32,000 nt of DNA from an uncultured Candidatus Pelagibacter sp. Its GTDB lineage: Bacteria; Pseudomonadota; Alphaproteobacteria; Pelagibacterales; Pelagibacteraceae. The stretch lies in NCBI GenBank assembly GCA_905612435.1, contig CAJQRZ010000003.1, positions 1-32,000 of the forward strand. The letters run 5' to 3'. This document shows positions 3,350 through 28,677 of this stretch, one piece after another. The position numbers were made by a program, and so were the translations under genes. The notes under the pieces were generated by a model. It did not search any database. It worked only from the letters and a program-made list of their open reading frames with translations, and had not been told where the DNA came from. The number at the start of each line of letters is the position of its first letter. Position 1 is the stretch's first letter.

Positions 3350-4980
3350 TATAATTTTATTAATTCCCACTTTATAGTCTGGATTTTATTTTGTGTCATT
3401 CCTGAAATAAATATGTTTTGATTTTCTGTATAAGAATTTTTTTTACCAAAATATAGACCGTTATCAATATTAATATCACCTTTGTCACAAGTAAATTTCC
3501 AACCTTCATGATCAAGCTCTATAAGTATTGATTTATTATTCTGGGTTTTCATTACTTTAATGTTTGGCTCTAAATGAAATCTAATTTCAAAATCTATATT
3601 TTTAAAATTATTTTTTGAGATTATTTTATCGTGGCCAATAAATTTTAATTGTTCAGGATAAAACTCAATTTCTCTATCATGAATAATTCCGTATTCTTTT
3701 ATATAACCATCATGTGCAGCATTTATTTTCCAATAATTTTTTTCAAATACAATATTTTTTTTTGTTATCTTTAAACCCTGTAAAACTTTGGAATTTAAAT
3801 TTGATGTTTTGGTAAATTTACATGAAGATCTATTATCTAATATTAGAGTGCTATGTACAGCGCTTGACTTTGATAGTTCATTTAATTGATGGTTAAAATT
3901 TTGAAAATAACCAGAATTACAAATTAATTTTTTACCATTAGATATAATTTCAAAAGATAGTGCACCAGATTGGTAGTTTGAAGAAAATTTTTTTTCAGGA
4001 CTTGAACCAATATCCATTATAAGTGACATCTTTTTATTATTCAAAATTGCATATCCACCTATTTCATTATTTTGATTTTTAAATTTATATCCTAATCTTT
4101 CTAAATAATAGTCAAATTCAGAATTGTTTGTTTCTTGATTTCCATTGAATAAAATATTTTTTTTGTTTTTTTGCCAAATAAAAGTGTAGGCTTGACCCAA
4201 GTAATATATGATCTCATCAATATATTCTGGTATTTCACTTTGAGATTCCTTAAGCCACTCTCTTATTAAGATAAAGTATTTTAAATAAAAGTTTAATTGT
4301 CTAATATTTCTTGATTTAGGAAAGCCATCATTATCAAAAGAAAATTTTATTATTTTTTTTAATAAATTTAGACCAGAATTTAAATAACCATCTTTGTCTT
4401 GATAGGACAAACCAGTCAAAATAATTGCTGCACATCCTATCATTTTATCATCAACCCACTCAGATTTTTCTATTTCATTAATTAGGTGATTAATTTGTTT
4501 TTGAATAGTATGATTAAATTTTTTCTTATAATTTGAATTTCCATCTTCGTAAGTAAGTTTGGAGTTTGAAAGCCAAGCAATTATTCTTTTTGAAATAATG
4601 TCTATCTCCCAACTTTTAGGATTGTATCTATTATTTGCTTCCATCCAGTTTAAAATTATATTCTGTGTATCTTTTTTTGATGATTTTAAATCCAAACTAA
4701 ATAACCAAAAAAAACTGTGGAGATTTTTATAATCTTTTTCTTTTAAGTTTTTATTATTCCATATTGTATTTAGTGAATAGTTTTCAATTTTAATTTTTTT
4801 TTTATTATATTTTATTAAACAATCTAATAGACTCGTGCTAGGTTTATATTCAAAAGTATAATCTTTAGTTAAAGAAATTTTTTTATTATAAATTTTGGAA
4901 TTTAAATAGAGTATCCGTATTTTTTTTATAAATAGCAAAAAAAAATTATTTACATGATTTAATAGATTTTTAAAAATCAT
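3349..4980 (-). CDS. heparinase II/III-like family protein (function unknown in this context)
   Basis: 543 aa. YQSGALSFEIISNGKKLICNSGY resembles the xxALSFExxxxGxxLIxNxG segment of heparinase II/III-like proteins. From memory, a gene of this family is conserved between rpe and purH in alphaproteobacteria. Confidence 0.55.
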   Translation of the reverse strand: MIFKNLLNHVNNFFLLFIKKIRILYLNSKIYNKKISLTKDYTFEYKPSTSLLDCLIKYNKKKIKIENYSLNTIWNNKNLKEKDYKNLHSFFWLFSLDLKSSKKDTQNIILNWMEANNRYNPKSWEIDIISKRIIAWLSNSKLTYEDGNSNYKKKFNHTIQKQINHLINEIEKSEWVDDKMIGCAAIILTGLSYQDKDGYLNSGLNLLKKIIKFSFDNDGFPKSRNIRQLNFYLKYFILIREWLKESQSEIPEYIDEIIYYLGQAYTFIWQKNKKNILFNGNQETNNSEFDYYLERLGYKFKNQNNEIGGYAILNNKKMSLIMDIGSSPEKKFSSNYQSGALSFEIISNGKKLICNSGYFQNFNHQLNELSKSSAVHSTLILDNRSSCKFTKTSNLNSKVLQGLKITKKNIVFEKNYWKINAAHDGYIKEYGIIHDREIEFYPEQLKFIGHDKIISKNNFKNIDFEIRFHLEPNIKVMKTQNNKSILIELDHEGWKFTCDKGDINIDNGLYFGKKNSYTENQNIFISGMTQNKIQTIKWELIKL

Positions 4981-4983
4981 TAT

Positions 4984-5643
4984 TTAACTTGATTTTAAAA
5001 GATCAATATTTTTTTTTATATTTCCATCGTTATTTTTAAAGATTGTAGTTCCAGACACCAAGATGTTAGCTCCAGCTTCTATAGCTAATTTACTGTTATC
5101 AAAATTAATTCCACCATCTATTTCAATATCAAAATCTAAATTTTTTTGATCTCTTATTTTTTTTAATTCTTTAATTTTATCTAATACTTCGGGCAAAAAT
5201 TTTTGTCCTCCAAATCCAGGATTCACACTCATAATTAAAATCAAATCTATCTCATTTAAAAAATCAGTTATAACATTAATTTTAGTTTTAGGATTTAATG
5301 AAATCCCCACTTTTTTATTTAATTTTTTTATATGATTTATTGAATCTTTTAAATTATCCGTAGCTTCAGGATGAATGGTAATAATATCTGCGCCAGCGTC
5401 AGCATAGTCTTGAATATATTTATGAACAGGTGATATCATTAAATGAACATCAAAGGGCAACTTTGTATATTGTCTTAGAGCTTTAATTACAGGGGGCCCT
5501 ATAGTTAAATTGGGAACAAAATGACCATCCATTACATCTATATGAATCATATCGGCCCCACCTTCTTCTAATTTTTTAATTTCATTTCCTAATTGACTAA
5601 AATTAGCTGATAAAATTGATGGTGAAATTTGTATTTTTTTCAT
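4984..5643 (-). CDS. rpe: ribulose-phosphate 3-epimerase
   Basis: ISPSILSANFSQLGNEIKKLEEGGADMIHIDVMDGHFVPNLTIGPPVIKALR and MSVNPGFGGQKF are canonical Rpe motifs. Confidence 0.95.
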   Translation of the reverse strand: MKKIQISPSILSANFSQLGNEIKKLEEGGADMIHIDVMDGHFVPNLTIGPPVIKALRQYTKLPFDVHLMISPVHKYIQDYADAGADIITIHPEATDNLKDSINHIKKLNKKVGISLNPKTKINVITDFLNEIDLILIMSVNPGFGGQKFLPEVLDKIKELKKIRDQKNLDFDIEIDGGINFDNSKLAIEAGANILVSGTTIFKNNDGNIKKNIDLLKSS

Positions 5644-5686
5644 TGATTACAATATTACTAGTATCAACTTTATTTTTTAATTTGAA

Positions 5687-6034
5687 TTAATTTTTACCAA
5701 ATATTCGATAAATCTCTGAAGCAATTTCACTTTCTAAAGGAAAAGATAACATTCCCATTACAGAATATCCTAATAAATAGGGCATAAGGTAAAATCTGAT
5801 CATATAGAAGAACCAAGCCACATAAAGTGGAACAAGAGGGTCTATGATGAAAGAAGGTGTGATTGGTTTGAATAAACGTATTAAGGGGTTTGTTAATTTT
5901 ACAAATGCTTTCATAAAAAAAAAATCTGAGTTTTCTCTTTGAAAAATATTCATTGCTACCCTTCCAATGAGAGTCCACATAATGACACCTAAAATGTAAT
6001 CGATTATAAGAATAAAAAGGGGAATTTCTGGCAT
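5687..6034 (-). CDS. small integral membrane protein, YggT-like
   Basis: 115 aa and hydrophobic. The W...LTNPLIRLFKPITP pattern resembles the YggT repeat (compare the clear YggT at 18808-19098). Assignment made by eye only. Confidence 0.4.
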   Translation of the reverse strand: MPEIPLFILIIDYILGVIMWTLIGRVAMNIFQRENSDFFFMKAFVKLTNPLIRLFKPITPSFIIDPLVPLYVAWFFYMIRFYLMPYLLGYSVMGMLSFPLESEIASEIYRIFGKN

Positions 6035-8303: not shown

Positions 8304-8927
8304 GTGTTGAAATATAAACTCAAATTTAAAGACATAAAACTTGAAGATTTTAAGGTTTATTTATTTGCTTTATTTAAAGCAATACTACCAAAGAAGAAAA
8401 TAAAAAATATTAAAGATCTTGAATCATTCATTCAAAAAAAATCTGCCTGGGTATCACAAGTAACTTTATATAATTATTTGAAAACAAGAATGGGAACAAA
8501 GTGGGTGTTACACTTTGATGATGAAATTTTTTTATCATCCATTAATAAAGCTAAATGGAATATTTATTCCGTAGCCCTTCAAGATCTTACTTTTTATAGT
8601 CTATCATATTTAAAAGTTTTTTATAATTATCAAGAAATAAACAAGGCCAATGAGATATATGAAAAAATTTTAAATGAAGAGGTTAAAAATGGAATGCCTG
8701 AAGAGGTTATTTTACGTGCAAAAGAAAAGTTTGGAGAAAGATTACAAAAAATAGATTGGGAAACACATTATAAGTCTTGGCCATTTAATGAGAGTGCACT
8801 AACTTTATATGAGTGGGCCCCAATTGCTGAAGAATTAAAAAGTTTAGATAGAAAGATAGTTTTAAATTCTATGATTTTAAAATGGGACAATATTAAAGAT
8901 GAGTTTGCAAAACTAATAAGTATTTAA
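8304..8927 (+). CDS. hypothetical protein (207 aa, soluble, no family recognised)
   Basis: Long ORF with a GTG start 8 nt after GAGG. Its composition matches neighbouring genes. Its stop shares the tetranucleotide TTAA with the convergent acs stop. Confidence 0.5.
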
Positions 8928-10927
8928 ATATTTTTTCTATTATCTACTAAACTTTGAACAACACTTGGATCAGCTAAAGTTGTTGTATCACCCAATTGAT
9001 CATGTTCATTAGCTGCAATCTTTCTTAAAATTCTTCTCATAATTTTTCCAGACCTTGTTTTTGGTAAGCCTGGTGAAAAATGGATTATGTCAGGTGTAGC
9101 AATTGGACCAATTTGTTTTCTAACCCAAAGCTTTAGCTCTCTTTCAAGATCTAAATTATCTATTTCATCTGCATTTAAGGTAACATAACAATATAAGCCG
9201 TTCCCTTTAATGTCATGAGGATATCCAACCACAGCTGCTTCAGCAACTTTGGGGTGAGCCACAAAGGCACTTTCTATTTCGGCTGTACCCAAGTTATGAC
9301 CTGAAACGATAATTACATCATCAACACGCCCTGTGATCCAGTAATATCCATCTTTGTCTCTTCTAGCACCATCACCTGTAAAATATTTACCATCAAATTG
9401 TGAAAAGTAAGTATCAATAAATCTTTGATGATCGCCATAAACAGTTCTCATTTGTCCAGGCCAAGATTGAGAAATGCACAGCCTTCCTTCTCCTACTCCT
9501 TTTATTTCTTTTCCATTTTTATCAATTATTGAAGGCTTAATTCCATAGAAGGGTTTAGTTGCTGAGCCAGGTTTTAAATTTATAGCACCTGTTTGTGGGC
9601 TGATCAAAATTCCACCAGTTTCGGTTTGCCACCAAGTGTCAACAATGGGACAATTGGAGTTGCCAACTGTCTTATAATACCACATCCAAGCCTGGGGGTT
9701 TATTGGTTCTCCGACTGTTCCTAATAATTTTAATGATTTTCTTGAAGTTTTTTTTACAGGTTTATCACCCTCTCTCATTAAAGCTCTAATAGCAGTCGGT
9801 GCTGTGTAAAAAATATTCACTTTATATTTGTCAATTATTTGCCACCACCTTGAACTATCAGGATAAGTTGGAATTCCTTCAAACATAACTGTTGTTGCAC
9901 CATTAGCTAGAGGTCCATAAATTATGTAACTGTGACCAGTTACCCAACCGATGTCAGCTGTACACCAGTAAATATCCTTTGGCTTGTAATTAAAAACATA
10001 CTGGTGAGTCATTGAGGCATAAACCATATAACCACCTGTTGTATGTAAAACTCCCTTTGGTTTTCCAGTAGAGCCAGATGTATAAAGAATAAACAAAGGA
10101 TCCTCAGCATTCATTTCTTCAGGTTCACATTTGTTTGAAACGCCTTTAATTAAATCATTATACCAAACATCTCTTCCATCAACCCAATTAACTTTATTTC
10201 CGGTTCTTTTAACCACTATACATTTTTTGACATCTGGACATTTTTTTAAAGCCTCATCTGTAATTTTTTTTAAAGAGATATTTTTTCCACCTCTAACACC
10301 TTCATCTGCCGTAATAATATATTCGGATTCGCAATCATTAACTCTTCCCGAAATAGATTCCGCAGAGAACCCGCCAAAAATAATTGAATGAACTGCTCCG
10401 ATTCTAGCACATGCAAGCATAGTAATTGCGAGCTCAGGAATCATAGTTAAATAAATAGTAACTCGATCACCTTTTTTTATTCCTAACTTTTTTAAACCAT
10501 TTGCAGCCTTAGAAACTTCTTGATGCAGTTGTTTGTACGAAATTTTTTTAGTATCTTTTGGATCATCTCCAACCCAAATAATAGCAGTTTTATCCTTTTT
10601 GTCTTTTAAGTGTCGATCAGTACAGTTACTTGATGCGTTCAATGTTCCGTCTTCATACCATTTGATTTTTACATCTGTTTTACTGTATTTTACATTTTTA
10701 ATTTTTTTATAAGGTTTAATCCAAGTTATTCTCTTCCCTTCTTTTTTCCAAAACTCATTATTATTTTTAATAGAATCGGAATACTTTTTTTTATAGTTGG
10801 CTTTATTTACTAAAGCATTTTTAATCCATTCAGGTTTTATTTTTAAAACCAGTTCTTTTTGAGTAGATTTTATTTTAATATTTTCTTTTTTTTTAGTTTT
10901 CTTTAGAAAAATTTTTTTTTTAGGCAT
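8924..10927 (-). CDS. acs: acetyl-CoA synthetase (AMP-forming)
   Basis: [51 protein letters not shown] and [11 protein letters not shown] are canonical Acs motifs. It carries a ~20 aa Lys-rich N-terminal extension. Confidence 0.95.
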
Positions 10928-10940
10928 TAAATTATTTTCT

Positions 10941-11354
10941 TTAAATACTACTCATCTTATTTAAAATTTTCCAGCTTTTAGAGTCAATAGGCATAACTGA
11001 TAATCTGCTTTGTTTAATAAGTGATAAATGGCTTAAAGCCTTATCTTTTCTGATATCTTTGAGCGTTACAGGTTTTATAAGTTTTTCTTTAAACTTAACT
11101 TGAACAGCCACAAATCTACCATCCTTGTCTGTTTTATCTAAAAAAGCTTCTTTAATCACCTCAACTATACCAACAATTTCTTTCCCGATATTTGAATGAT
11201 AAAAAAAACAAAGATCTCCTTTTTCCATAATTCTTAAATTTTTTGCCGCTTGGTAGTTTCTTACTCCATCCCAAGGAGCACCTTTTGCCCCTACTTTTTT
11301 TTGTTGATCAATAGACCAAACATCAGGCTCAGATTTCATTAACCAGTAGTTCAT
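10941..11354 (-). CDS. EVE (PUA-like, DUF55) domain protein
   Basis: [17 protein letters not shown]...[28 protein letters not shown] is the typical EVE-domain N-terminus. There are only 13 nt to the acs start, so the two are probably co-transcribed. Confidence 0.85.
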
Positions 11355-11425
11355 CTAATTGTTTTTCTTACAGGTCTCCATAATTTATTTTAGCACTTTT
11401 ATTTTACGCTATTTTTACAAAACAC

Positions 11426-11448
11426 GTACCCCACAAAGTACCCCGCAT
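11426..11448. repeat. paired-heptamer site A: GTACCCC-acaaa-GTACCCC-gCAT
   Basis: Read directly from the sequence. It starts 72 nt upstream of the EVE start codon. Confidence 0.6.
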
Positions 11449-11580
11449 TTTTTTTAATATCTAACATTATCTGTTAACGAGAAAAAATATCGCGACAATT
11501 ATTCGCTACATTTACACCTATATTGAACAGAGAGTATCTTTTTTTTAGGGTTTTTTAATATAGGTTCTCGATTTAAAAAT

Positions 11581-11727
11581 ATGAAAAATTTTATCAAAAA
11601 AATTACTATCTTATATCTATGGGTATTATTTATACCAATAGGACTAATACTTAAATCAATATTATTTTTGAGTAAAATACTTAAGAAACTCATTTTATTT
11701 ACTACAAAAAAAGCCAATAGTTTTTAA
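11581..11727 (+). CDS. possible 48-aa hydrophobic mini-protein (MKNFIKKITILYLWVLFIPIGLILKSILFLSKILKKLILFTTKKANSF)
   Basis: ATG-initiated ORF below the track cutoff, with one predicted TM segment flanked by Lys. No SD and no homology recognised. It overlaps the track ORF 11499-11717 on the opposite strand. Confidence 0.25.
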   Translation: MKNFIKKITILYLWVLFIPIGLILKSILFLSKILKKLILFTTKKANSF

Positions 11728-11758
11728 GCTTGTTTATTTAGTGTGCATCGTTAAATCG

Positions 11759-11781
11759 GTACCCCACTACGTACCCCTCAT
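11759..11781. repeat. paired-heptamer site B: GTACCCC-actac-GTACCCC-tCAT
   Basis: Read directly from the sequence. It has the same 7-N5-7-NCAT architecture and orientation as sites A and C. Confidence 0.6.
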
Positions 11782-11857
11782 TTACACTTATTAATAAGCT
11801 TTAATCAAGATTTGTACTGGGAAAATAAGATAAAGGTTGGTGGGAGTCAGTGGAGCC

Positions 11858-11902
11858 TTATCGATGTACTACAAGCTTTGGTTTCATTAACCAGTACTGC
11901 AT
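11858..11902 (-). pseudogene. remnant of an EVE-gene 5' end (MQYWLMKPKLVVHR*)
   Basis: ATG-CAG-TAC-TGG-TTA-ATG-AAA parallels MNYWLMK of the intact gene. A 15-nt identical core (tttcattaaccagta) occurs at 11882-11896 and 11334-11348. The frame stops after 14 codons, and similarity to the gene body ends at the core. Confidence 0.5.
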
Positions 11903-11998
11903 CTATTTGTTTCTCCAGTGTTTACTTATCTTTTTGAACATAGCACTTTCATAATACACCATTTTTAGCAAACACGTGACATGTCAAGTGACATACAT
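11882..11998 (-). repeat. diverged duplicate of the EVE start codon plus ~95 bp upstream region (partner 11334-11448)
   Basis: Hand alignment shows a 15/15 core. The last 35 nt before the heptamer site match 28/35 (tagcactttt...aaaacac vs tagcactttc...caaacac). Core-to-heptamer spacing is nearly the same (77 vs 79 nt). Confidence 0.6.
11976..11998. repeat. paired-heptamer site C: GTGACAT-gtcaa-GTGACAT-aCAT
   Basis: Read directly from the sequence. It occupies the position in the duplicate that corresponds to site A, but both heptamers carry the same different sequence. Confidence 0.6.
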
Positions 11999-12017
11999 AT
12001 CCAAGTCTCGTTGTGTT

Positions 12018-12028
12018 TACTGGTTAAT
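12018..12028 (+). repeat. inverted third copy of the 11-bp core ATTAACCAGTA
   Basis: tactggttaat is the exact reverse complement of attaaccagta (11338-11348 and 11886-11896). On the plus strand it reads YWLIK. Confidence 0.5.
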
Positions 12029-12185
12029 AAAAGAAATTAGCTTACATTCTTCCAATCCTCTGGTCCAATTTATTTAATATCTTTATCTTTTTCAAGAAAA
12101 GAAAATTCTATCCCATATAAATTTGAAATACGACCAGTAATTTTTTTAAATATACAAAATAACAAAATGTTATTAAGTTTATATT

Positions 12186-13451
12186 ATGAAAAAAAAATGG
12201 ATAATAATTATTTTGATAATCATTATTTTAGCAATATTATTGTCATTTTTTTCTGTTCTGTTTTTAAAAAAAGCAAGAGAAACTAGATCTTGGCCATTTG
12301 CTTCAGGATTATCTTTTAAATTACCGTCAGTCGTGAAATATTATGCTTATAAATTCACAAATCCCGAGTCTTTAACAATAGAGACACACTTATATGAAAT
12401 AAATACAGAATTTTTATCGATACCTGATCAGGAAGCAACAGGTAGTGGTGGAAGTGTAAATATTCTTAATAAAGATAATTTACTTATTACATTAGATAAT
12501 GGAAATAACTGGATATTAAATCTTGCAACCAAAAATTTTGTAAAAGGGCCTGATATTTTTTCTAATAAATTTTTAAGCATAAGGGATGTAAATATTTTCC
12601 CTGAAAAAAAAGAGATCGCACTTTTAGTGGGTGAAAATAATAATAACTGTAAAATCATGAAGTTAAAAATTTATGATTTCAGCTTTTTAGAAAAAAAATT
12701 AGAAATAGATAATGACAGAACTTTGTGGAAGTCTGAAAAAATGTGTGAAGAAGATTTTAACCCATTGATTAACAATGGGGGGGGTAGAGTAATATTTTAT
12801 AAAAATAGTTATTTTATATCAATTGGTTTTTTAGCCCAAAATATCGAATCTGGTGTTTATAATCCTTTTCCTCAGAATCCAAATAGCTCATTCGGAAAAA
12901 TTATAAGAATATTTGATGAAAATAATAGTGAGATTTACTCTATTGGCCATAGAAATCCACAAGGTCTTTTTGTTAGGCAAAAAAATGATTTACTAATTTC
13001 AACAGAACATGGCCCCAGAGGTGGTGATGAAATAAATTTGATTACTAAAAATTCAAATTATGGTTGGCCGTGCAAGTCAATCGGGACATTGTATTCTTAT
13101 GACCTGAAGAATGACTCGAAGCTATGGCCAGATGATTTACAAAACTATGGCTGTGTAGATAATAAGTTATTTATTGATCCATTGTATTCTTGGACTCCTT
13201 CAATTGGTGCATCACAGGGTCTGGAATATAAAGGAGATGAATTTTCTAAAATGAAAGATAATTTAATTATATCATCCTTAATAGGAGAATCGTTATTTAG
13301 AGTTAATTTATCAGATAACAATAATGTAATTAACGTTGAAACAATTAGAATTAATGAAAGAATAAGAGACTTAACAGAATCTCCTGACGGTAAAATTGTG
13401 TTATATACTGATGGAGGAAGTTTAATTTTTTTATCAGATAATAATAAATAA
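12186..13451 (+). CDS. PQQ-dependent sugar (glucose/sorbosone) dehydrogenase-like beta-propeller, N-terminal membrane anchor
   Basis: YSIGHRNPQGLFV...STEHGPRGGDEINLITKNSNYGWP is the signature region of the soluble GDH/sorbosone dehydrogenase family. The N-terminus WIIIILIIIILAILLSFFSVLFL is a TM segment. Confidence 0.8.
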   Translation: MKKKWIIIILIIIILAILLSFFSVLFLKKARETRSWPFASGLSFKLPSVVKYYAYKFTNPESLTIETHLYEINTEFLSIPDQEATGSGGSVNILNKDNLLITLDNGNNWILNLATKNFVKGPDIFSNKFLSIRDVNIFPEKKEIALLVGENNNNCKIMKLKIYDFSFLEKKLEIDNDRTLWKSEKMCEEDFNPLINNGGGRVIFYKNSYFISIGFLAQNIESGVYNPFPQNPNSSFGKIIRIFDENNSEIYSIGHRNPQGLFVRQKNDLLISTEHGPRGGDEINLITKNSNYGWPCKSIGTLYSYDLKNDSKLWPDDLQNYGCVDNKLFIDPLYSWTPSIGASQGLEYKGDEFSKMKDNLIISSLIGESLFRVNLSDNNNVINVETIRINERIRDLTESPDGKIVLYTDGGSLIFLSDNNK

Positions 13452-13532
13452 ATTAAGACTATACTATTTTTTCACAATTTTAATTTAGATCTTCATTATT
13501 CCAGGTAAATAAATTGGCATCAAAAGGTATAT

Positions 13533-14837
13533 TTAACCTTCTGGAATTAAATTAATAATTTTTTTAATTGGAATAATTTTATTTTCGATTTCAAAAGATC
13601 TTCCATTTTCTAAAATCTTCTTTGCAACCAATTCCATTGCTGGATACGCAGCTCTTAATAGTTGGTTTGCATAAATTACAATTTTAAATCCATTTTTAAT
13701 AAGATCTTTTTCAAAAACTTTGGAATATGTGGATGGTACTGCAACTAATGGAATAAAATTTTTACTTTTTTTAAAAATTTTAGAAAATGAGAAAATTTCT
13801 TTAGGTGTATTTTCTTTGCTATGAATTAAAATTGCATCTGCTCCTGCTTTAGAATAAATTTCGGCTCTTTTAAGAGCGTCATTTAAGCCTTTTCCCAATA
13901 TAAAACTTTCTACTCTTGCAATAACTAAAAAATCACTTGATTGTCTAGACGAACAAACCTTCTTTATTTTTTTTGCAAATAAACTAGGCTTGTCTTGAGA
14001 GGCACCACTTTGGTTTTTAAATAAAGAGTTTTTTTTTAAACCTATTTTGTCTTCCATAATCATTGCTGAGACACCAGATCTTTCTAAAGATTTTACTAAA
14101 AATGATAAATGTTCTATTTGACCACCATTATCTGCATCAAAAACTAATGGTTTAGTTGTTACATCCATAATGTCATTTACTGAAGAAATACGAGATGAAA
14201 AGTCCAAGGATGAGTTGTCAGGCTTACCTTTTGTTGCTGAGTCTGTAAGGCTTGATGACCACATTCCATCATACTCAATATCTATATTTTTTTTATTTAT
14301 TTTTAAATTTTCAATAATTAATCCTGTTAACGAATTATGAGACTCAAGTAATCTGATAATTTTCTTTGAAAATAGTAATCTTTTTAATCGTGATACCCGG
14401 TTTTCTGGCAATGTACCAACTTCTAAGATTTTTTTTTTAATTAGTGTGGATGAAATATTTTTTGTATATTTTGGCTCAATTAGTTTGCCAGACCATTTTC
14501 TTAAAATTTTAATTACTCTTTCTCTAGTTTTTTTTTGAGGTCCCTTTTTCCAGTCATCACCATGAATTACAAAATCTGGTTTGATAAGATTTAAATTACT
14601 AACGTAGTCCAAAGTTTCTTGTTTAATAACACTTTTAACATATTTAATGTTTTGAATAATAATTTTTCTTCTTTTATAGTCTAAATAAGGAATATTTTTA
14701 TATGAAGCAATTGCTTCGTCAGTCAATAAACCAACTATTACATCACCAAATGTACTCGCTTTTTTTAAAATACTAATATGACCTTCATGAATGATATCAG
14801 CAGCAAGACCGATATATACTTTTTTTCTAATTTTCAT
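13533..14837 (-). CDS. pepM: fusion protein: N-terminal cytidylyltransferase domain + C-terminal phosphoenolpyruvate phosphomutase
   Basis: The N-terminus GLAADIIHEGHISILKKA (HxGH) and KNISST resemble TagD/ECT-type cytidylyltransferases. The C-terminal ICL/PEPM-fold region has LESHNSLTGLIIE, FDADNGG and MEDKIGLKKNS, i.e. the PepM-diagnostic EDK-X5-NS motif. Confidence 0.85.
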   Translation of the reverse strand: MKIRKKVYIGLAADIIHEGHISILKKASTFGDVIVGLLTDEAIASYKNIPYLDYKRRKIIIQNIKYVKSVIKQETLDYVSNLNLIKPDFVIHGDDWKKGPQKKTRERVIKILRKWSGKLIEPKYTKNISSTLIKKKILEVGTLPENRVSRLKRLLFSKKIIRLLESHNSLTGLIIENLKINKKNIDIEYDGMWSSSLTDSATKGKPDNSSLDFSSRISSVNDIMDVTTKPLVFDADNGGQIEHLSFLVKSLERSGVSAMIMEDKIGLKKNSLFKNQSGASQDKPSLFAKKIKKVCSSRQSSDFLVIARVESFILGKGLNDALKRAEIYSKAGADAILIHSKENTPKEIFSFSKIFKKSKNFIPLVAVPSTYSKVFEKDLIKNGFKIVIYANQLLRAAYPAMELVAKKILENGRSFEIENKIIPIKKIINLIPEG

Positions 14838-14977
14838 CGTAATTATTTTATATAGAAACTATCCAATGCGTCTATAAAAATTTAAAAAACTTTTTAAGTT
14901 TAAGACCAATAATGTAATTTATTAATATACACACGGTTAAAACTTACTTGTTCTAAATGCAATAAAAGTGTTTTTCA

Positions 14978-16051
14978 TTATAATCTTACTCCAGCGCCTT
15001 TTAAAAAGGCCGCTTCTTCATCCAAGGGCCATCTAGGTTTAGCGGGGTGATCTAATTCACTAAATTGTTTAAGTTTATATTTTTCTAAACCAACCATAGC
15101 AATCATTGCTGCATTATCTCCACATAAATTTATAGGTGGAAAAATAGCATTGAAGTTTTCTTCATTACAAAGCTTTGTTAAAACTTTTCTAATTTTTTTA
15201 TTTGCAGCAACACCACCAGCAACTACAAAGATATTAGCTTTATCTCCATTAATATTTTTAAATTCTTTAAATGCAATTTTGCTTTTTTTATAAAGTATTT
15301 CTTCAACAGTTTTTTGAAAAGAGGCTGCAAGATCATATTTTTCTTGATCTGTTTTTATTTTTTTTACAATTCTAAGTACTGCAGTTTTAAGTCCAGCAAA
15401 AGATAAATTGCACCCACCTTTATGAAAGATTGGTTTTGGTAATTTATATTTATCGGGATCACCTTTTTTGGCGTACTCTTCTATTTGTGGACCACCAGGA
15501 AATTCTATACCAAGCATTTTTGCAGTTTTGTCAAATGCTTCACCAAGGGCATCGTCAATTGTTGTTCCTAATCTTTTATACTCTCCTAATCCTTTAACAC
15601 TTAAAAATTGAGTATGCCCTCCTGAAATTAGAAGTAAGAGATAAGGATAATTTAATTTAGAATTTAATTTTGGGCTTAGTGCGTGACCTTCTAAATGATT
15701 TACTGCAATAAATGGTTTATTTAGAGAGGATGCCATTGCTTTTCCAAAACTCAAACCAACTGATAAACAAACGATAAGACCGGGACCTGCGGTAGCTGCA
15801 ATTGCATCTACATCATCTAGCATGATGCCACTTTTATCAATTGCTTTTTTGGTAATTAAATCAATTTTTTCTATATGAGATCTTGCAGCAAGTTCTGGAA
15901 CAACTCCACCAAACTCCTTATGAACATCAACTTGGCTTGAAACGATACTAGATAAAATTGTTGGAGTGCCTTGTTCATTTTCAGTAATTATTGATGCAGC
16001 TGTTTCATCACAACTTGATTCAATTCCCAAAATTATAGGTTTTTTGCTCAT
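14978..16051 (-). CDS. tsaD: tRNA N6-adenosine threonylcarbamoyltransferase
   Basis: ILGIESSCDETAASI, NHLEGHALSP, LLLISGGHTQ and VAGGVAAN are Kae1/TsaD motifs. Confidence 0.95.
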   Translation of the reverse strand: MSKKPIILGIESSCDETAASIITENEQGTPTILSSIVSSQVDVHKEFGGVVPELAARSHIEKIDLITKKAIDKSGIMLDDVDAIAATAGPGLIVCLSVGLSFGKAMASSLNKPFIAVNHLEGHALSPKLNSKLNYPYLLLLISGGHTQFLSVKGLGEYKRLGTTIDDALGEAFDKTAKMLGIEFPGGPQIEEYAKKGDPDKYKLPKPIFHKGGCNLSFAGLKTAVLRIVKKIKTDQEKYDLAASFQKTVEEILYKKSKIAFKEFKNINGDKANIFVVAGGVAANKKIRKVLTKLCNEENFNAIFPPINLCGDNAAMIAMVGLEKYKLKQFSELDHPAKPRWPLDEEAAFLKGAGVRL

Positions 16052-25705: not shown

Positions 25706-25839
25706 TGAAAAAAGAGAACTTACCTTCAAAAATTTGTACTATTTGTAAAAAAACTTTTGTTTGGCGAAAAAAATGGAAGCTTAATTGGGCTAGAGTTAAG
25801 TACTGTTCCAAGAAGTGTTCTCGAACTTATTTATTTTGA
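25705..25839 (+). CDS. DUF2256-type zinc-ribbon mini-protein (44 aa)
   Basis: Found by hand and absent from the track. MKKENLPSKICTICKKTFVWRKKWKLNWARVKYCSKKCSRTYLF fits the CxxC...WRKKW...W..VKYCS..C pattern of DUF2256. It has a TAATG overlap with the photolyase-related gene. Confidence 0.75.
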   Translation: MKKENLPSKICTICKKTFVWRKKWKLNWARVKYCSKKCSRTYLF

Positions 25840-25887
25840 CATTATAAATAAAATATGGTCTAAGAATTTAGCGCTGAGTTTAATTAA

Positions 25888-25922
25888 ATTGCAGAGCGCT
25901 TTAAAAATCCTGCTAAAGCGAT
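25888..25922 (+). promoter_or_regulatory. SAM-II-like riboswitch aptamer (H-type pseudoknot)
   Basis: GCAG (25891-94) pairs with CTGC (25910-13). CGCTTT (25897-902), lying in that loop, pairs with AAAGCG (25915-20). It contains the TGCTAAAGC box and is followed by an intrinsic terminator. A tandem SAM-II/SAM-V arrangement upstream of bhmt is described for Pelagibacter. Confidence 0.6.
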
Positions 25923-25927
25923 TATTC

Positions 25928-25957
25928 AACCACCGCTTTAGTCGGTGGTTTTTTTTT
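25928..25957 (+). terminator. intrinsic terminator (expression platform of the first aptamer)
   Basis: Stem AACCACCG / CGGTGGTT (8 bp), 7-nt loop, then a run of 9 T (two of them also in the stem). CGCTTT at 25934-39, in the left arm/loop, can alternatively pair with AAAGCG at 25915-20 as an antiterminator. Confidence 0.75.
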
Positions 25958-25974
25958 GAAAGTTTCAATTAAAA

Positions 25975-26035
25975 ATCGGGCATTTGAACCGTATTGTGCA
26001 CCCTGCATTTGCTAAAGCACTAAAAAGGAGAGAAG
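25975..26035 (+). promoter_or_regulatory. SAM-V-like riboswitch aptamer abutting a Shine-Dalgarno sequence
   Basis: A second TGCTAAAGC box lies at 26010-18. Stem GTGC (25996-99) / GCAC (26017-20) is followed immediately by TAAAAAGGAG (GGAG 26027-30). I could not fold the full pseudoknot by hand, so the boundaries are approximate. Confidence 0.5.
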
Positions 26036-26080
26036 AAGCTGTTTATGTTTTGCACCCTCTGTCTAAACATTCCTGGTTTC

Positions 26081-26104
26081 TTTTCTCCACTAGACTGGAG
26101 AAAA
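26081..26104 (+). promoter_or_regulatory. SD-sequestering hairpin directly upstream of the bhmt start codon
   Basis: Perfect 9-bp stem TTTTCTCCA / TGGAGAAAA with loop CTAGAC. The right arm contains the bhmt SD (GGAG 26097-26100) and ends 1 nt before the ATG at 26106. Confidence 0.55.
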
Positions 26105-26105
26105 A

Positions 26106-27167
26106 ATGACAAAAAATATATTAAAAGAAAGATTAGATAAAGGACCTGTAATATGTGCAGAGGGTTTTTTATTTGAAATTGAAAGACGTGGTTATATGGC
26201 ATCGGGGGAATTTGTTCCCATGGTTTCATTAGATCATCCAGAAGTATTAGAAAATCTACACAGAGAATTTCAGCATGCAGGATCAGATATTGTAGAAGCC
26301 TTTACTTATAATGGACATAGAGAAAAAATGCGAGTTATTGGAAAAGAAGAACTTCTTGAACCATTAAATCGTTCAGCTCTGAAAATAGCAAAAAAAGTTG
26401 CCTTAGATATACCTAAGGGGAGCAAACCAAATTTAATGGCAGGAAATATTTCTAATTCAAATATTTGGAAACATGACGACAAACAATCCCAAAAAGAAGT
26501 TGAAGAAATGTTCTCAGAAATGATTGGTTGGGCTGTTGAAGAAGGTGCTGATATGTTAGTTGGTGAAACTTTTTATTATGCAGAAGAAGCCTTTAAAGCA
26601 TTAGAGGTAATGAAAAAAACAGGTTTACCAACAGTGTTGACAATATCTCCAATGGGTGAAAACAAAATGAGAGATGGAAAATCCGTTATTGATACCTGTA
26701 AAGAACTTGAACAACTTGGTGCAGATGTTGTTGGTTTGAATTGTTTTAGAGGACCAGCAACCATGTTTCCTTTTTTAAAAGAAATCAGAGAAGCTGTTAA
26801 ATGTCATGTTGGAGCTTTACCTATTCCTTATAGAACAAGTCAAGAATTTCCTACATTCTTTAATCTACCTGACAGAAGTAATTGTGAATGTCCATCACCT
26901 CATGGAAGAACATTTCCAACTGCACTAGATCCACATTTTTGCAATAGATATGAAATTGGTAAATTTGCAAAGAATGCATATGCACTAGGCATTAATTATA
27001 TTGGTGTGTGTTGTGGAGCCAACCCAATGTTGATAAGAGAAGTAGCGGAGTCAGTTGGCTTAAATGTTCCAGCAAGTAAATACCGAGAAAATATGGAAAA
27101 TCATTTTATGTATGGAAAAAATAAAAGAATTCCAAAACACATGACTGATTATGGAGACAAGGCTTAA
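26106..27167 (+). CDS. bhmt: betaine-homocysteine S-methyltransferase (homocysteine S-methyltransferase family)
   Basis: ILKERLDKGPVICAEGFLFEIERRGYMASGEFVPMVSLDHPEVLENLHREFQHAGSDIVEAFTY parallels animal/bacterial BHMT N-termini. GLNCF and GVCCGA are the zinc-ligand Cys motifs. An in-frame TAG at 26091 fixes the start at 26106. Confidence 0.9.
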   Translation: MTKNILKERLDKGPVICAEGFLFEIERRGYMASGEFVPMVSLDHPEVLENLHREFQHAGSDIVEAFTYNGHREKMRVIGKEELLEPLNRSALKIAKKVALDIPKGSKPNLMAGNISNSNIWKHDDKQSQKEVEEMFSEMIGWAVEEGADMLVGETFYYAEEAFKALEVMKKTGLPTVLTISPMGENKMRDGKSVIDTCKELEQLGADVVGLNCFRGPATMFPFLKEIREAVKCHVGALPIPYRTSQEFPTFFNLPDRSNCECPSPHGRTFPTALDPHFCNRYEIGKFAKNAYALGINYIGVCCGANPMLIREVAESVGLNVPASKYRENMENHFMYGKNKRIPKHMTDYGDKA

Positions 27168-28319: not shown

Positions 28320-28429
28320 ATTATTTCTTATCACATGATTAATTATGGGAATAAAACGTAGGTGAGTTTTTCTAAAGCTAATTTGTAGCATACACTTGAT
28401 TAGTAATACCTATATAAGAGTTTCTAATT

Positions 28430-28672
28430 ATGCGTCCTGTATTTAAAATTATAATAATGTATGAAATATTTTTTTTTCTATTCTGGAATATTTTATATTT
28501 TTCTAATTCAAATATTGAGAACTGGTTTGAAGCAAAAGTTTTAACAGCATTGTTCACATTTTTAGCAACAATGGCACTAGGATTTGGTTTTGTATATGTG
28601 GTTTATATTAGTGCAAAATTAACAGGTATGGTAGACAAAATGAAAGCCATAAAAGACCCTAGAAAAAATTAA
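28430..28672 (+). CDS. hypothetical small membrane protein (80 aa, two TM segments)
   Basis: ORF with two clear hydrophobic segments and a basic C-terminus. No family recognised. Confidence 0.4.
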   Translation: MRPVFKIIIMYEIFFFLFWNILYFSNSNIENWFEAKVLTALFTFLATMALGFGFVYVVYISAKLTGMVDKMKAIKDPRKN

Positions 28673-28677
28673 ATTTT

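Follow-up and report, generated by a model that had tools for sequence, protein, structure and literature searches.

SAR11, more abundant in the ocean than any other group of bacteria, has a huge pangenome. In two reports (PMC11796062; bioRxiv 10.64898/2026.10.07.757358), SAR11 flexible islands, or 'strain-dependent slots', are described as occupying a fixed position with the same core genes and holding small gene sets that differ from cell to cell, with envelope and defense functions being common; these islands carry almost no mobility functions, partial tRNA repeats occur in a few of them, and the mechanism is called unresolved. Here we analyze 32,000 nucleotides (nt) of an uncultured Candidatus Pelagibacter sp. 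(GCA_905612435.1, contig CAJQRZ010000003.1, positions 1 to 32,000 of the forward strand; hereafter, the window), in which 831 bases without any open reading frame (ORF) longer than 72 codons separate the start of an EVE-domain gene (11354, minus strand) from a GSDH-type dehydrogenase gene (12186-13451). The 'noncoding' DNA of this gap (11355-12185) is built from the conserved end modules of a family of cassettes and is not random leftover, and the window holds a tandem array of such cassettes. Probably, these are small integrative gene cassettes that target the first 21 bases of the SAR11 EVE gene and whose end modules are stacked in the gap.

Among the described systems, the tycheposon islands of Prochlorococcus (bioRxiv 10.1101/2020.12.28.424599) likewise involve a streamlined marine bacterium and repeated integration at one site. 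Tycheposons, however, come with a tyrosine recombinase and insert mainly at tRNA genes, whereas the cassettes at the EVE gene (hereafter, EVE cassettes) encode no recombinase, appear to target the 5' end of a protein-coding gene and, unlike tycheposons, have long conserved end modules with class-specific pairs of 9-mers. Integron arrays are similar to the EVE locus in that small or promoter-less cargo units lacking a recombinase of their own are stacked on one chromosomal platform. They differ in that the EVE array has no adjoining intI, no attI and no attC-type imperfect palindromes; its cassettes end in direct repeats and ~170 nt of conserved modules with no consensus hairpin, and insertion is into a coding start rather than into attI.

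The cis-mobilizable elements (CIMEs) beside the integrative and conjugative elements ICESt1 and ICESt3 of Streptococcus thermophilus are bounded by att sites, devoid of integrase and transfer genes, arranged in tandem arrays with shared att sites and mobilized in trans, and in this they resemble the EVE cassettes, which have att-like ends and lack recombinase and transfer genes. For CIMEs, a cognate integrase-bearing element at the same site is known, whereas none was found for the EVE site among 401 genomes and 130 loci or, as judged by the right module described below, in IMG/VR. In attP sites of the lambda/P2/HP1 type, the core is flanked, at ~50-115 nt on both sides, by direct 8-10-mers that are bound by the N-terminal domain of the integrase. 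By analogy, the equivalent at the EVE locus would be ~290 bp long, positions 11759-11996 of the window would represent such a junction, and SAR11 integrase elements as well as a viral contig share this layout; unlike in the lambda/P2/HP1-type systems, the integrase is absent from the element, and arm binding is putative. The central junction in the window has two arms of different classes because it joins two cassettes.

Integrase-associated elements near tRNAs are already known in Pelagibacter. We found no description, in the SAR11 literature consulted, of a cassette family with such modules that targets the EVE start, and the accessible parts of the two reports on SAR11 islands (PMC11796062; bioRxiv 10.64898/2026.10.07.757358) make no mention of a duplicated protein-gene start, of left and right modules or of arm pairs.

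Modular structure of the gap upstream of EVE

A preliminary description of this DNA had singled out the gap as an exceptionally large noncoding region and put the spacers elsewhere at no more than ~150 bp, apart from a riboswitch leader of ~265 bp. The gap is indeed the longest noncoding spacer in the window, and exceptional; the other spacers were somewhat understated, given that, when ORFs of at least 90 amino acids (aa) are counted, the second longest spans ~400 nt (25706-26105) and the third ~358 nt (28320-28677). The second is accounted for by a SAM-V riboswitch at 25968-26033 (plus strand; 74.8 bits against a gathering score of 41), which occupies part of the ~400 nt that precede the gene at 26106-27167 as its leader. 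Both small ORFs named in that description are present in the gap, one of 72 codons with a TTG start (11499-11717, minus strand) and one of 48 codons (11581-11727, plus strand).

The EVE start and ~72 nt upstream of it (11324-11427) are repeated, 548 nt apart and with ~80% identity, at 11872-11977. The repeated EVE start is the 21-nt core TTTCATTAACCAGTAnTnCAT, and each copy of the left module (Lmod) that follows the core leads into ACACGT and a pair of 9-mers with a 12-nt period (the arms). The order of the parts is EVE, core A, Lmod A, arm, 312 nt, arm, right module (Rmod), core B, Lmod B, a further arm (arm C), 189 nt and the GSDH gene, with the following coordinates:

8924-10927, downstream of EVE: acs (Pfam AMP-binding and ACAS_N domains)
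10941-11354, minus strand: intact EVE-domain gene, 137 aa (Pfam EVE, E=7.6e-45), the target gene
11334-11354: core copy A, TTTCATTAACCAGTAGTTCAT, complement of EVE codons 1-7 (MNYWLMK), the duplicated putative attachment core
11355-11425: Lmod A, 71 nt (CTAATTG...AAAACAC), aligned to the left modules of ~20 loci
11426-11446, plus strand: left arm of cassette 1, GTACCCCAC AAA GTACCCCGC, a 9-mer pair with a 12-nt period
11447-11758: interior of cassette 1, 312 nt, a near-empty cargo remnant, rare in metagenomes
11581-11727, plus strand: hydrophobic ORF of 48 codons, of uncertain coding status
11759-11779, plus strand: right arm of cassette 1, GTACCCCAC TAC GTACCCCTC, matching the left arm
11780-11881: Rmod, 102 nt, an AT-rich part with a near-palindrome followed by a GC-rich box
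11842-11859: GC-rich box, GGGAGTCAGTGGAGCCTT, the most conserved box of Rmod
11882-11902: core copy B, a pseudo-EVE start that repeats the 21-nt core
11903-11975: Lmod B, 73 nt, left module of a second, older cassette, 81-82% identical to Lmod A
11976-11996, plus strand: left arm of cassette 2, GTGACATGT CAA GTGACATAC, a 9-mer pair
11997-12185: leader of cassette 2 up to the GSDH start, 189 nt
12186-13451, plus strand: GSDH-type dehydrogenase (Pfam), candidate cargo of cassette 2
13533-14837, minus strand: cytidylyltransferase-phosphoenolpyruvate (PEP) mutase fusion (Pfam), candidate cargo of cassette 2
14958-14977: junction at the tsaD stop, a possible decayed core/Rmod remnant (AAGTGTTTTTCATTA), motif only
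14978-16051, minus strand: tsaD (Pfam TsaD, E=9.3e-91), the conserved far flank of the insertion site

The repeats in the gap are not a chance occurrence. The pattern GTACCCC-N5-GTACCCC is found twice (0.19 expected), and GTGACAT-N5-GTGACAT once as an exact pair and five times with up to three mismatches (1.5 expected), a number that none of 100 shuffles reached; the arm motifs are absent elsewhere in the genome to which the window belongs. Core B opens a stub of the EVE gene, the minus strand over 11858-11902 reading as 14 codons, MQYWLMKPKLVVHR, followed by a stop. Lmod A may serve as a cassette-borne replacement for the upstream region and ribosome-binding site (RBS) of EVE-acs, with a promoter role; a scan for promoters and terminators yielded 14 promoter-like sites (11 expected), none of them in Lmod A, and no terminators. 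Promoter-like sites are located at 12159-12205, around the GSDH start.

The region 12186-14837, with the GSDH and PEP mutase genes, is the likely cargo of cassette 2. The only motif that the tsaD-side junction has in common with other genomes is ...TTCAT TA TAATnTTACTCC. A remnant of the right end of cassette 2 beside tsaD was considered and rejected, its local alignment to Rmod being not significant (51 of 500 shuffles). As a separate observation, the PEP mutase fusion gene stands isolated in an accessory islet, partner phosphonate genes not being nearby.

The 15-nt core occurs in two exact direct copies and one inverted copy with a single mismatch, the latter inside the leader of cassette 2 (12018-12032). 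This arrangement would suit an invertible switch in which the segment between the direct core (11886-11896) and its inverted counterpart (12018-12028) flips and thereby switches promoters. We regard such a switch as highly improbable: 11882-12051 aligns at 70% identity to the left end of a cassette in genome G261, where the inverted core is present at the same place in a degenerate version (GTTTATTAGTTAATAAC), the segment is missing from the near-twin metagenome contig L182, no invertase gene is nearby, and no inverted-orientation joint appears among the joints listed in four metagenomes.

Conservation of the cassette architecture in SAR11

When the gap was compared with relatives by BLAST, the EVE start alone was common to most of them. 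Genome G035, from another family of the order, matches both copy A and the arm-Rmod-core B segment, at a distance of 3.3 kb, and the cassette so delimited encloses a type I-like specificity gene and an HSDR_N/N6-methylase gene; the order of the locus is acs, EVE, cassette, EVE stub, gpsA, tsaD, and the stub again comprises 14 codons (MNYWLMKPTLVIHR and a stop). Rmod was matched by BLAST in 22 of 401 genomes of the order, and a strict pattern combining the GC-rich box with TTGGTTT was found in 29 contigs of a species-level genome collection, all 29 from Pelagibacteraceae, as well as in at least 120 marine metagenome contigs. Rmod is conserved over 36 distinct copies. All loci with visible flanks are arranged in one way: EVE, core, Lmod, arm pair, cargo, arm pair, Rmod, core and tsaD (or gpsA-tsaD). 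The enclosed cargo is varied, from 0 to 4 kb, and frequently consists of restriction-modification genes.

The preliminary description had offered a structured RNA, a regulatory hub and a recombination site as explanations of the gap, favoring the last. The comparison with relatives supports that choice: the EVE-tsaD interval ranges from 0 to ~6.4 kb and is bounded by duplicated EVE starts, the gap belongs to a family of cassette junctions that extends across SAR11, and what would have spoken against it, an interval of conserved length and sequence that matches a known RNA or protein, was not found.

The target can be narrowed down by the gene order. In genus g2 (L009/L012), gpsA is located between tsaD and EVE, which is not the case in genus g1, and in the window gpsA was not found beside tsaD; the EVE core at which the cassette inserts is nevertheless common to both genera, so that the EVE start, rather than the upstream gene, is the target.

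The two ~80% identical copies, 548 nt apart, could also be taken for a private tandem duplication of the 5' region of EVE in this genome, now decaying. The survey refutes this explanation, to which we attach next to no credence: the same modules are found, with different cargo, in more than 100 independent SAR11 genomes and metagenome contigs, and in the alignment Lmod B is closer to the left modules of other genomes than to Lmod A.

In genome G113 (L049, G113:C1:139000-150000, at ~3950-5450), Rmod, a core, the start of Lmod and a second core joined to a 3' fragment of tsaD are located far from EVE, in a surface-polysaccharide gene cluster, where they flank an unannotated ORF of 427 aa. The locus was rejected as a second target site, the piece being a relocated Rmod-core-Lmod and tsaD 3' fragment in a polysaccharide island; it indicates that pieces of cassette junctions can move into other islands.

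Empty, tandem and zero-cargo states

Empty sites are present in three genomes of the same genus (G018, G021 and G024), where the EVE ATG is two bases from the tsaD stop and the 21 nt of core A directly adjoin tsaD, and in G025, where EVE adjoins gpsA. The right junction of occupied sites is identical in sequence to the empty site. CACDEK010000013 (L095/L089), L091 and L113 harbor tandem arrays, with a separate arm class for each cassette. Contig L182, the only relative of the interior of cassette 1, has the same mini-cassette with CCCC arms, then Rmod and core, then the same GSDH gene at 75% aa identity. Two contigs, L191 (90-520) and L124 (560-1000), hold Lmod, a single 9-mer and Rmod without cargo; the Rmod of L191 is nearly identical to that of the window, so that this contig is in effect cassette 1 minus the interior between the arms. 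These zero-cargo forms resemble products of deletion or recombination between two arm pairs.

Contigs of four marine metagenomes, which are short, were mapped onto 10500-15300 at 90% likeness. Depth is very high over EVE, Rmod with core B, and tsaD (thousands in the flanks of cassette 1), and 0-385 over the interior of cassette 1; the GSDH and PEP mutase genes have near-zero to low depth (2-108 for the PEP mutase fusion). Joints that link core B to the tsaD stop represent the common arrangement. One short contig joins EVE to tsaD (11357>14977, with a side of 25 nt), maybe simply from a strain with an empty site. The joints show that the variants exist in the sea, not that excision occurs in this strain.

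Arm pairs of cassettes and SAR11 integrases

The arm pairs lie 71-73 nt from the core on the Lmod side and 102 nt on the Rmod side, and the two arms of a cassette match each other. Over 18 nonredundant cassettes and seven variable positions, the mean minimum Hamming distance between left and right arms is 0.28, compared to 2.08 after shuffling, and none of 10000 shuffles reached the observed value. At least six arm classes can be distinguished (CCCC, CTACAC, CTATGC, CTATAC, GACATGT and CCATAC/CCACAC), the 9-mers of the cassette classes being GTACCCCAC, GTACTACAC, GTGCTATAC, GTACTATGC, GTGACATGT and GTACCATAC. Cassettes of one arm class differ in cargo; the class of cassette 2, for example, also flanks an NgoFVII and C5-methylase cassette in G217, and adjoins EVE in G261.

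Accessory tyrosine integrases are encoded in 34 of the 401 SAR11 genomes, at varying loci. In all 34 integrase loci examined (L107-L110, L232-L246 and 15 of L247-L275), the RBS of the integrase gene is preceded, at 10-25 nt, by two or sometimes three tandem 8-9-mers (period, 11-13 nt) that adjoin a tRNA, a tRNA fragment or a transfer-messenger RNA, and the sequence of the repeat varies with the integrase subtype. The opposite end of the element, ~100 nt from the tRNA copy, bears another pair with the same orientation in three genomes (G055, G144 and G111). The tandem 8-9-mer pair is a useful signature for SAR11 att sites and for integrase specificity classes. When the profile of the SAR11 integrases is aligned to lambda Int (structures 1z1g and 5j0n), the match starts at residue 96, and the N-terminal segment ahead of it has the size of an arm-binding domain; Pfam did not recognize such a domain in these proteins, matching only Phage_integrase and, weakly, Int_N.

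The only tRNA in the window is a tRNA-Gly at 1381. The integrase of the window genome itself (L107, G000 contig 39, 6040-7166; 316 aa) has the arms GTACTCAC GCTC GTACTCA, ~65 nt from the tRNA breakpoint and 20 nt before the start codon, a spacing and motif near the cassette pattern of core, Lmod of 71-73 nt and GTACnnCAC. The tRNA-Met beside it is truncated, lacking the first ~14 nt, and ARAGORN called no tRNA in 14 kb of this contig. On the same contig, a motif with a 12-nt period (TTCTCAATGAACTTTTCAATGAA or similar) recurs in four successive intergenic regions (8190, 9630, 10765 and 11665), upstream of minus-strand genes, two of them with MORN repeats, and may be a shared operator or promoter element.

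A viral contig with a complete, canonical attP shows how cassette-type arms can be placed in such a site. In L394 (IMGVR_UViG_3300025120_000150, attP region 4300-5700, GC 35%), the stop of the integrase gene is followed by GTGCTATAA ATA GTGCTATAC, 45 nt, the 3' half of a tRNA-Ile, 115 nt and GTGCTATAC AAA GTGCTATAC, and this arm 9-mer is that of the commonest class of EVE cassettes. The best relatives of its integrase among isolated phages are only ~32% identical. Other viral contigs with cassette-type arm pairs were discarded as mostly chance or GC-rich matches.

Transfer between families

G035 (family f2) and G394 (family f1) share a restriction-modification cassette of 3.4 kb at 98% identity, the flanks being 65-72% and tsaD ~65% identical. 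The 98% identity begins right after the EVE ATG, at Lmod, and stops at ...GTGTTGGTTT, before the right core, and within EVE each of the two genomes resembles its own lineage. Identity bounded at the core is expected from insertion at the core, whereas a crossover within the flanking genes would not yield such a pattern. The core variant is polymorphic within the genus. The host-type cores of both genomes, to which we return below, would fit a donor with the same core, later conversion, or a mechanism that generates the duplication.

Recombinase in trans or homologous recombination

The EVE-site cassettes are integrase-less: searches by tblastn (E<1e-3) with 19 SAR11 accessory integrases and the L394 integrase as queries detected no homologs in 130 EVE-site loci (778 kb), and the Pfam search of the cargo found no integrase. 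As the cassettes encode no integrase, their movement needs either a recombinase acting in trans or homologous recombination via the conserved modules. As in elements of tyrosine integrases, the core is duplicated at both ends and matches the empty target (in the window, G035, G394 and others), and direct repeats that by their sequence appear to be of the arm type, lineage-specific, are present on both sides; the integrase gene within the element is lacking. We favor a recombinase in trans as the probable agent because the core is cleanly duplicated at a naive site, the transferred cassette is bounded exactly by the core, cassettes form serial arrays and the geometry of the arms resembles that of integrase sites.

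In the ancestral state, tsaD (or gpsA) would run directly into the EVE ATG. A cassette would insert at the 21-nt core, which would thereby be duplicated, bringing on the EVE side a left module of ~72 nt, that is, a new upstream region with an RBS, followed by a 9-mer pair, and on the tsaD side a matching 9-mer pair, a right module of ~100 nt and an EVE stub of 14 codons. The left module would restore the expression of EVE-acs. In the window, the first unit would be a nearly empty one of 548 bp with GTACCCC... arms and one doubtful ORF of 48 codons, and the second the left end of an older unit with GTGACAT... arms, with the GSDH and PEP mutase genes as its probable cargo and a decayed right end. 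The 9-mer pairs would be arm-type binding sites of a lambda/P2-like tyrosine integrase that acts in trans, as for cis-mobilizable or satellite elements, and the attP of the helper would be predicted to hold TTTCATTAACCAGTA.

Several observations weigh against this scheme. None of the 40 integrase matches in the 401 genomes is near EVE or tsaD, and no integrase-bearing element was found at the site; searches of IMG/VR with two Rmod patterns yielded no free attP or parent element, only one GC-rich chance match; no SAR11 integrase has arms that exactly match a cassette class; and neither an excision product nor a transcript has been directly observed. G035 and G394 each have two core copies of the host type, a state not predicted by simple one-step conservative recombination from a foreign donor unless that donor had the same core. 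The tRNA-Ile core of L394 is only 84-88% like that of SAR11, its host probably being a different one, and a GTGCTATAC-type 9-mer pair somewhere in IMG/VR is near chance expectation; we do not claim L394 as the helper and use it as an analogy only. Finally, runs of up to ~60 nt in Lmod and Rmod are identical across many genomes and could be RecA homology arms.

The last point belongs to the alternative of a 'landing pad', in which, after one ancient illegitimate insertion, RecA-dependent double crossovers via Lmod and Rmod, EVE and tsaD swap the cargo, arms match through joint descent with the cassette or through gene conversion, and no site-specific recombinase is involved. The host-type cores and the lack of integrase at any of the 130 loci would fit this alternative as well, slippage between direct arm repeats could produce the zero-cargo forms, and a recent SAR11 report favors homologous replacement at fixed positions (bioRxiv 10.64898/2026.10.07.757358). 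A double crossover, however, cannot duplicate its own homology, so that the exact core duplication weighs against it: the naive g2 site (G025) has no modules, and yet the cassette in G035 and G133 is bounded exactly by the duplicated 21-nt core. Moreover, the inter-family identity is cut off by the core at either end, without extending into EVE or tsaD, the Rmod-core-Lmod junctions of the tandem arrays fit serial integration at the core, and the strict 9-mer/12-nt geometry, maintained in at least six sequence classes, mirrors integrase arm sites. We therefore consider homologous recombination unlikely and a recombinase in trans the more probable mechanism. The position of the locus, which in complete genomes is ~90 kb from the end of the record and not mid-chromosome, argues weakly against a dif-like site, as in Xer-dependent elements (integrative mobile elements exploiting Xer, IMEX).

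Going further, and only tentatively, the EVE start might be an integron-like, mechanistically distinct platform for integrase-less cassettes that are 'addressed' by their arm class and moved in trans by matching tyrosine integrases of transient tRNA-targeting elements or phages. If true, this would be a general, unrecognized route for the exchange of defense and surface genes in the most abundant marine bacteria, which are poor in mobile genetic elements. The EVE locus provides a sequence-defined handle, with a 21-nt target, end modules, arm classes, four states (empty, occupied, tandem and zero-cargo) and a near-identical cassette in two families, and excision and integration there can be directly tested in long-read data and in cultured strains such as the cassette-bearing Pelagibacter Uisw_104 (complete genome NZ_CP159820, locus L084/L043).

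RNA, regulatory and coding potential of the gap

The conservation of Rmod, which is strong for a fast-evolving, AT-rich genome, could also reflect a structured noncoding RNA, or a regulatory hub for EVE-acs and the dehydrogenase gene in which the repeats are transcription factor operators. Rmod has a near-palindrome with a TATAAT-like sequence and two GANTC-type motifs, the RBS of EVE lies within Lmod, and the arm pairs are 30-47 nt before the first cargo gene. The RNA option of the preliminary description nevertheless found no support. Rfam had no match in the gap at the gathering score in a scan of the whole window, and at a permissive E-value the best matches in 10800-12700 were SAM-II (16.7 bits, cutoff 44) and ylbH (13.8 bits, cutoff 50); RNAalifold applied to the 36 Rmod copies gave -6.0 and -0.08 kcal/mol for the two strands, with practically no consensus helices; and the folding energy of the gap is unremarkable (minimum free energy z-scores of -1.45 and -1.47). 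Furthermore, the interval is wholly absent from many relatives, and a purely regulatory role leaves the duplicated EVE start and the variable cargo unexplained, so that an RNA or a hub appears very unlikely.

The 72-codon TTG ORF was rejected as a gene because it is not conserved in L182. L182 retains the 48-codon ORF, open and with unchanged ends, the differing codons comprising 19 nonsynonymous and 3 synonymous ones; it has one database relative (62 aa, 63% identity) and no Pfam match, and may encode a small membrane peptide or nothing.

Cargo of the EVE cassettes

Cargo families were compiled with Pfam from 60 cargo proteins. Recurrent among them are C5 and N6 DNA methylases, restriction enzymes of the NgoFVII, MunI and ResIII families, PLD-type nucleases, an HNH endonuclease, PIF1-like helicases, NrdR-like zinc ribbons and NUDIX proteins; elsewhere, the cargo consists of glycosyltransferases, autotransporters, a carbamoyltransferase, or a pair of DHDPS and AsnC genes. 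The EVE domain is a fold that reads modified bases, and the link between an EVE-domain target and methylase and restriction cargo may be coincidental or functional.

The GC-rich box of Rmod (for example, 11842-11859; consensus GGGAGTCGGTAGAGTC) contains two GANTC motifs, 9 nt apart. GANTC is the methylation site of CcrM in Alphaproteobacteria, and a functional link between these motifs, the EVE-domain target and the methylase cargo would be conjectural.

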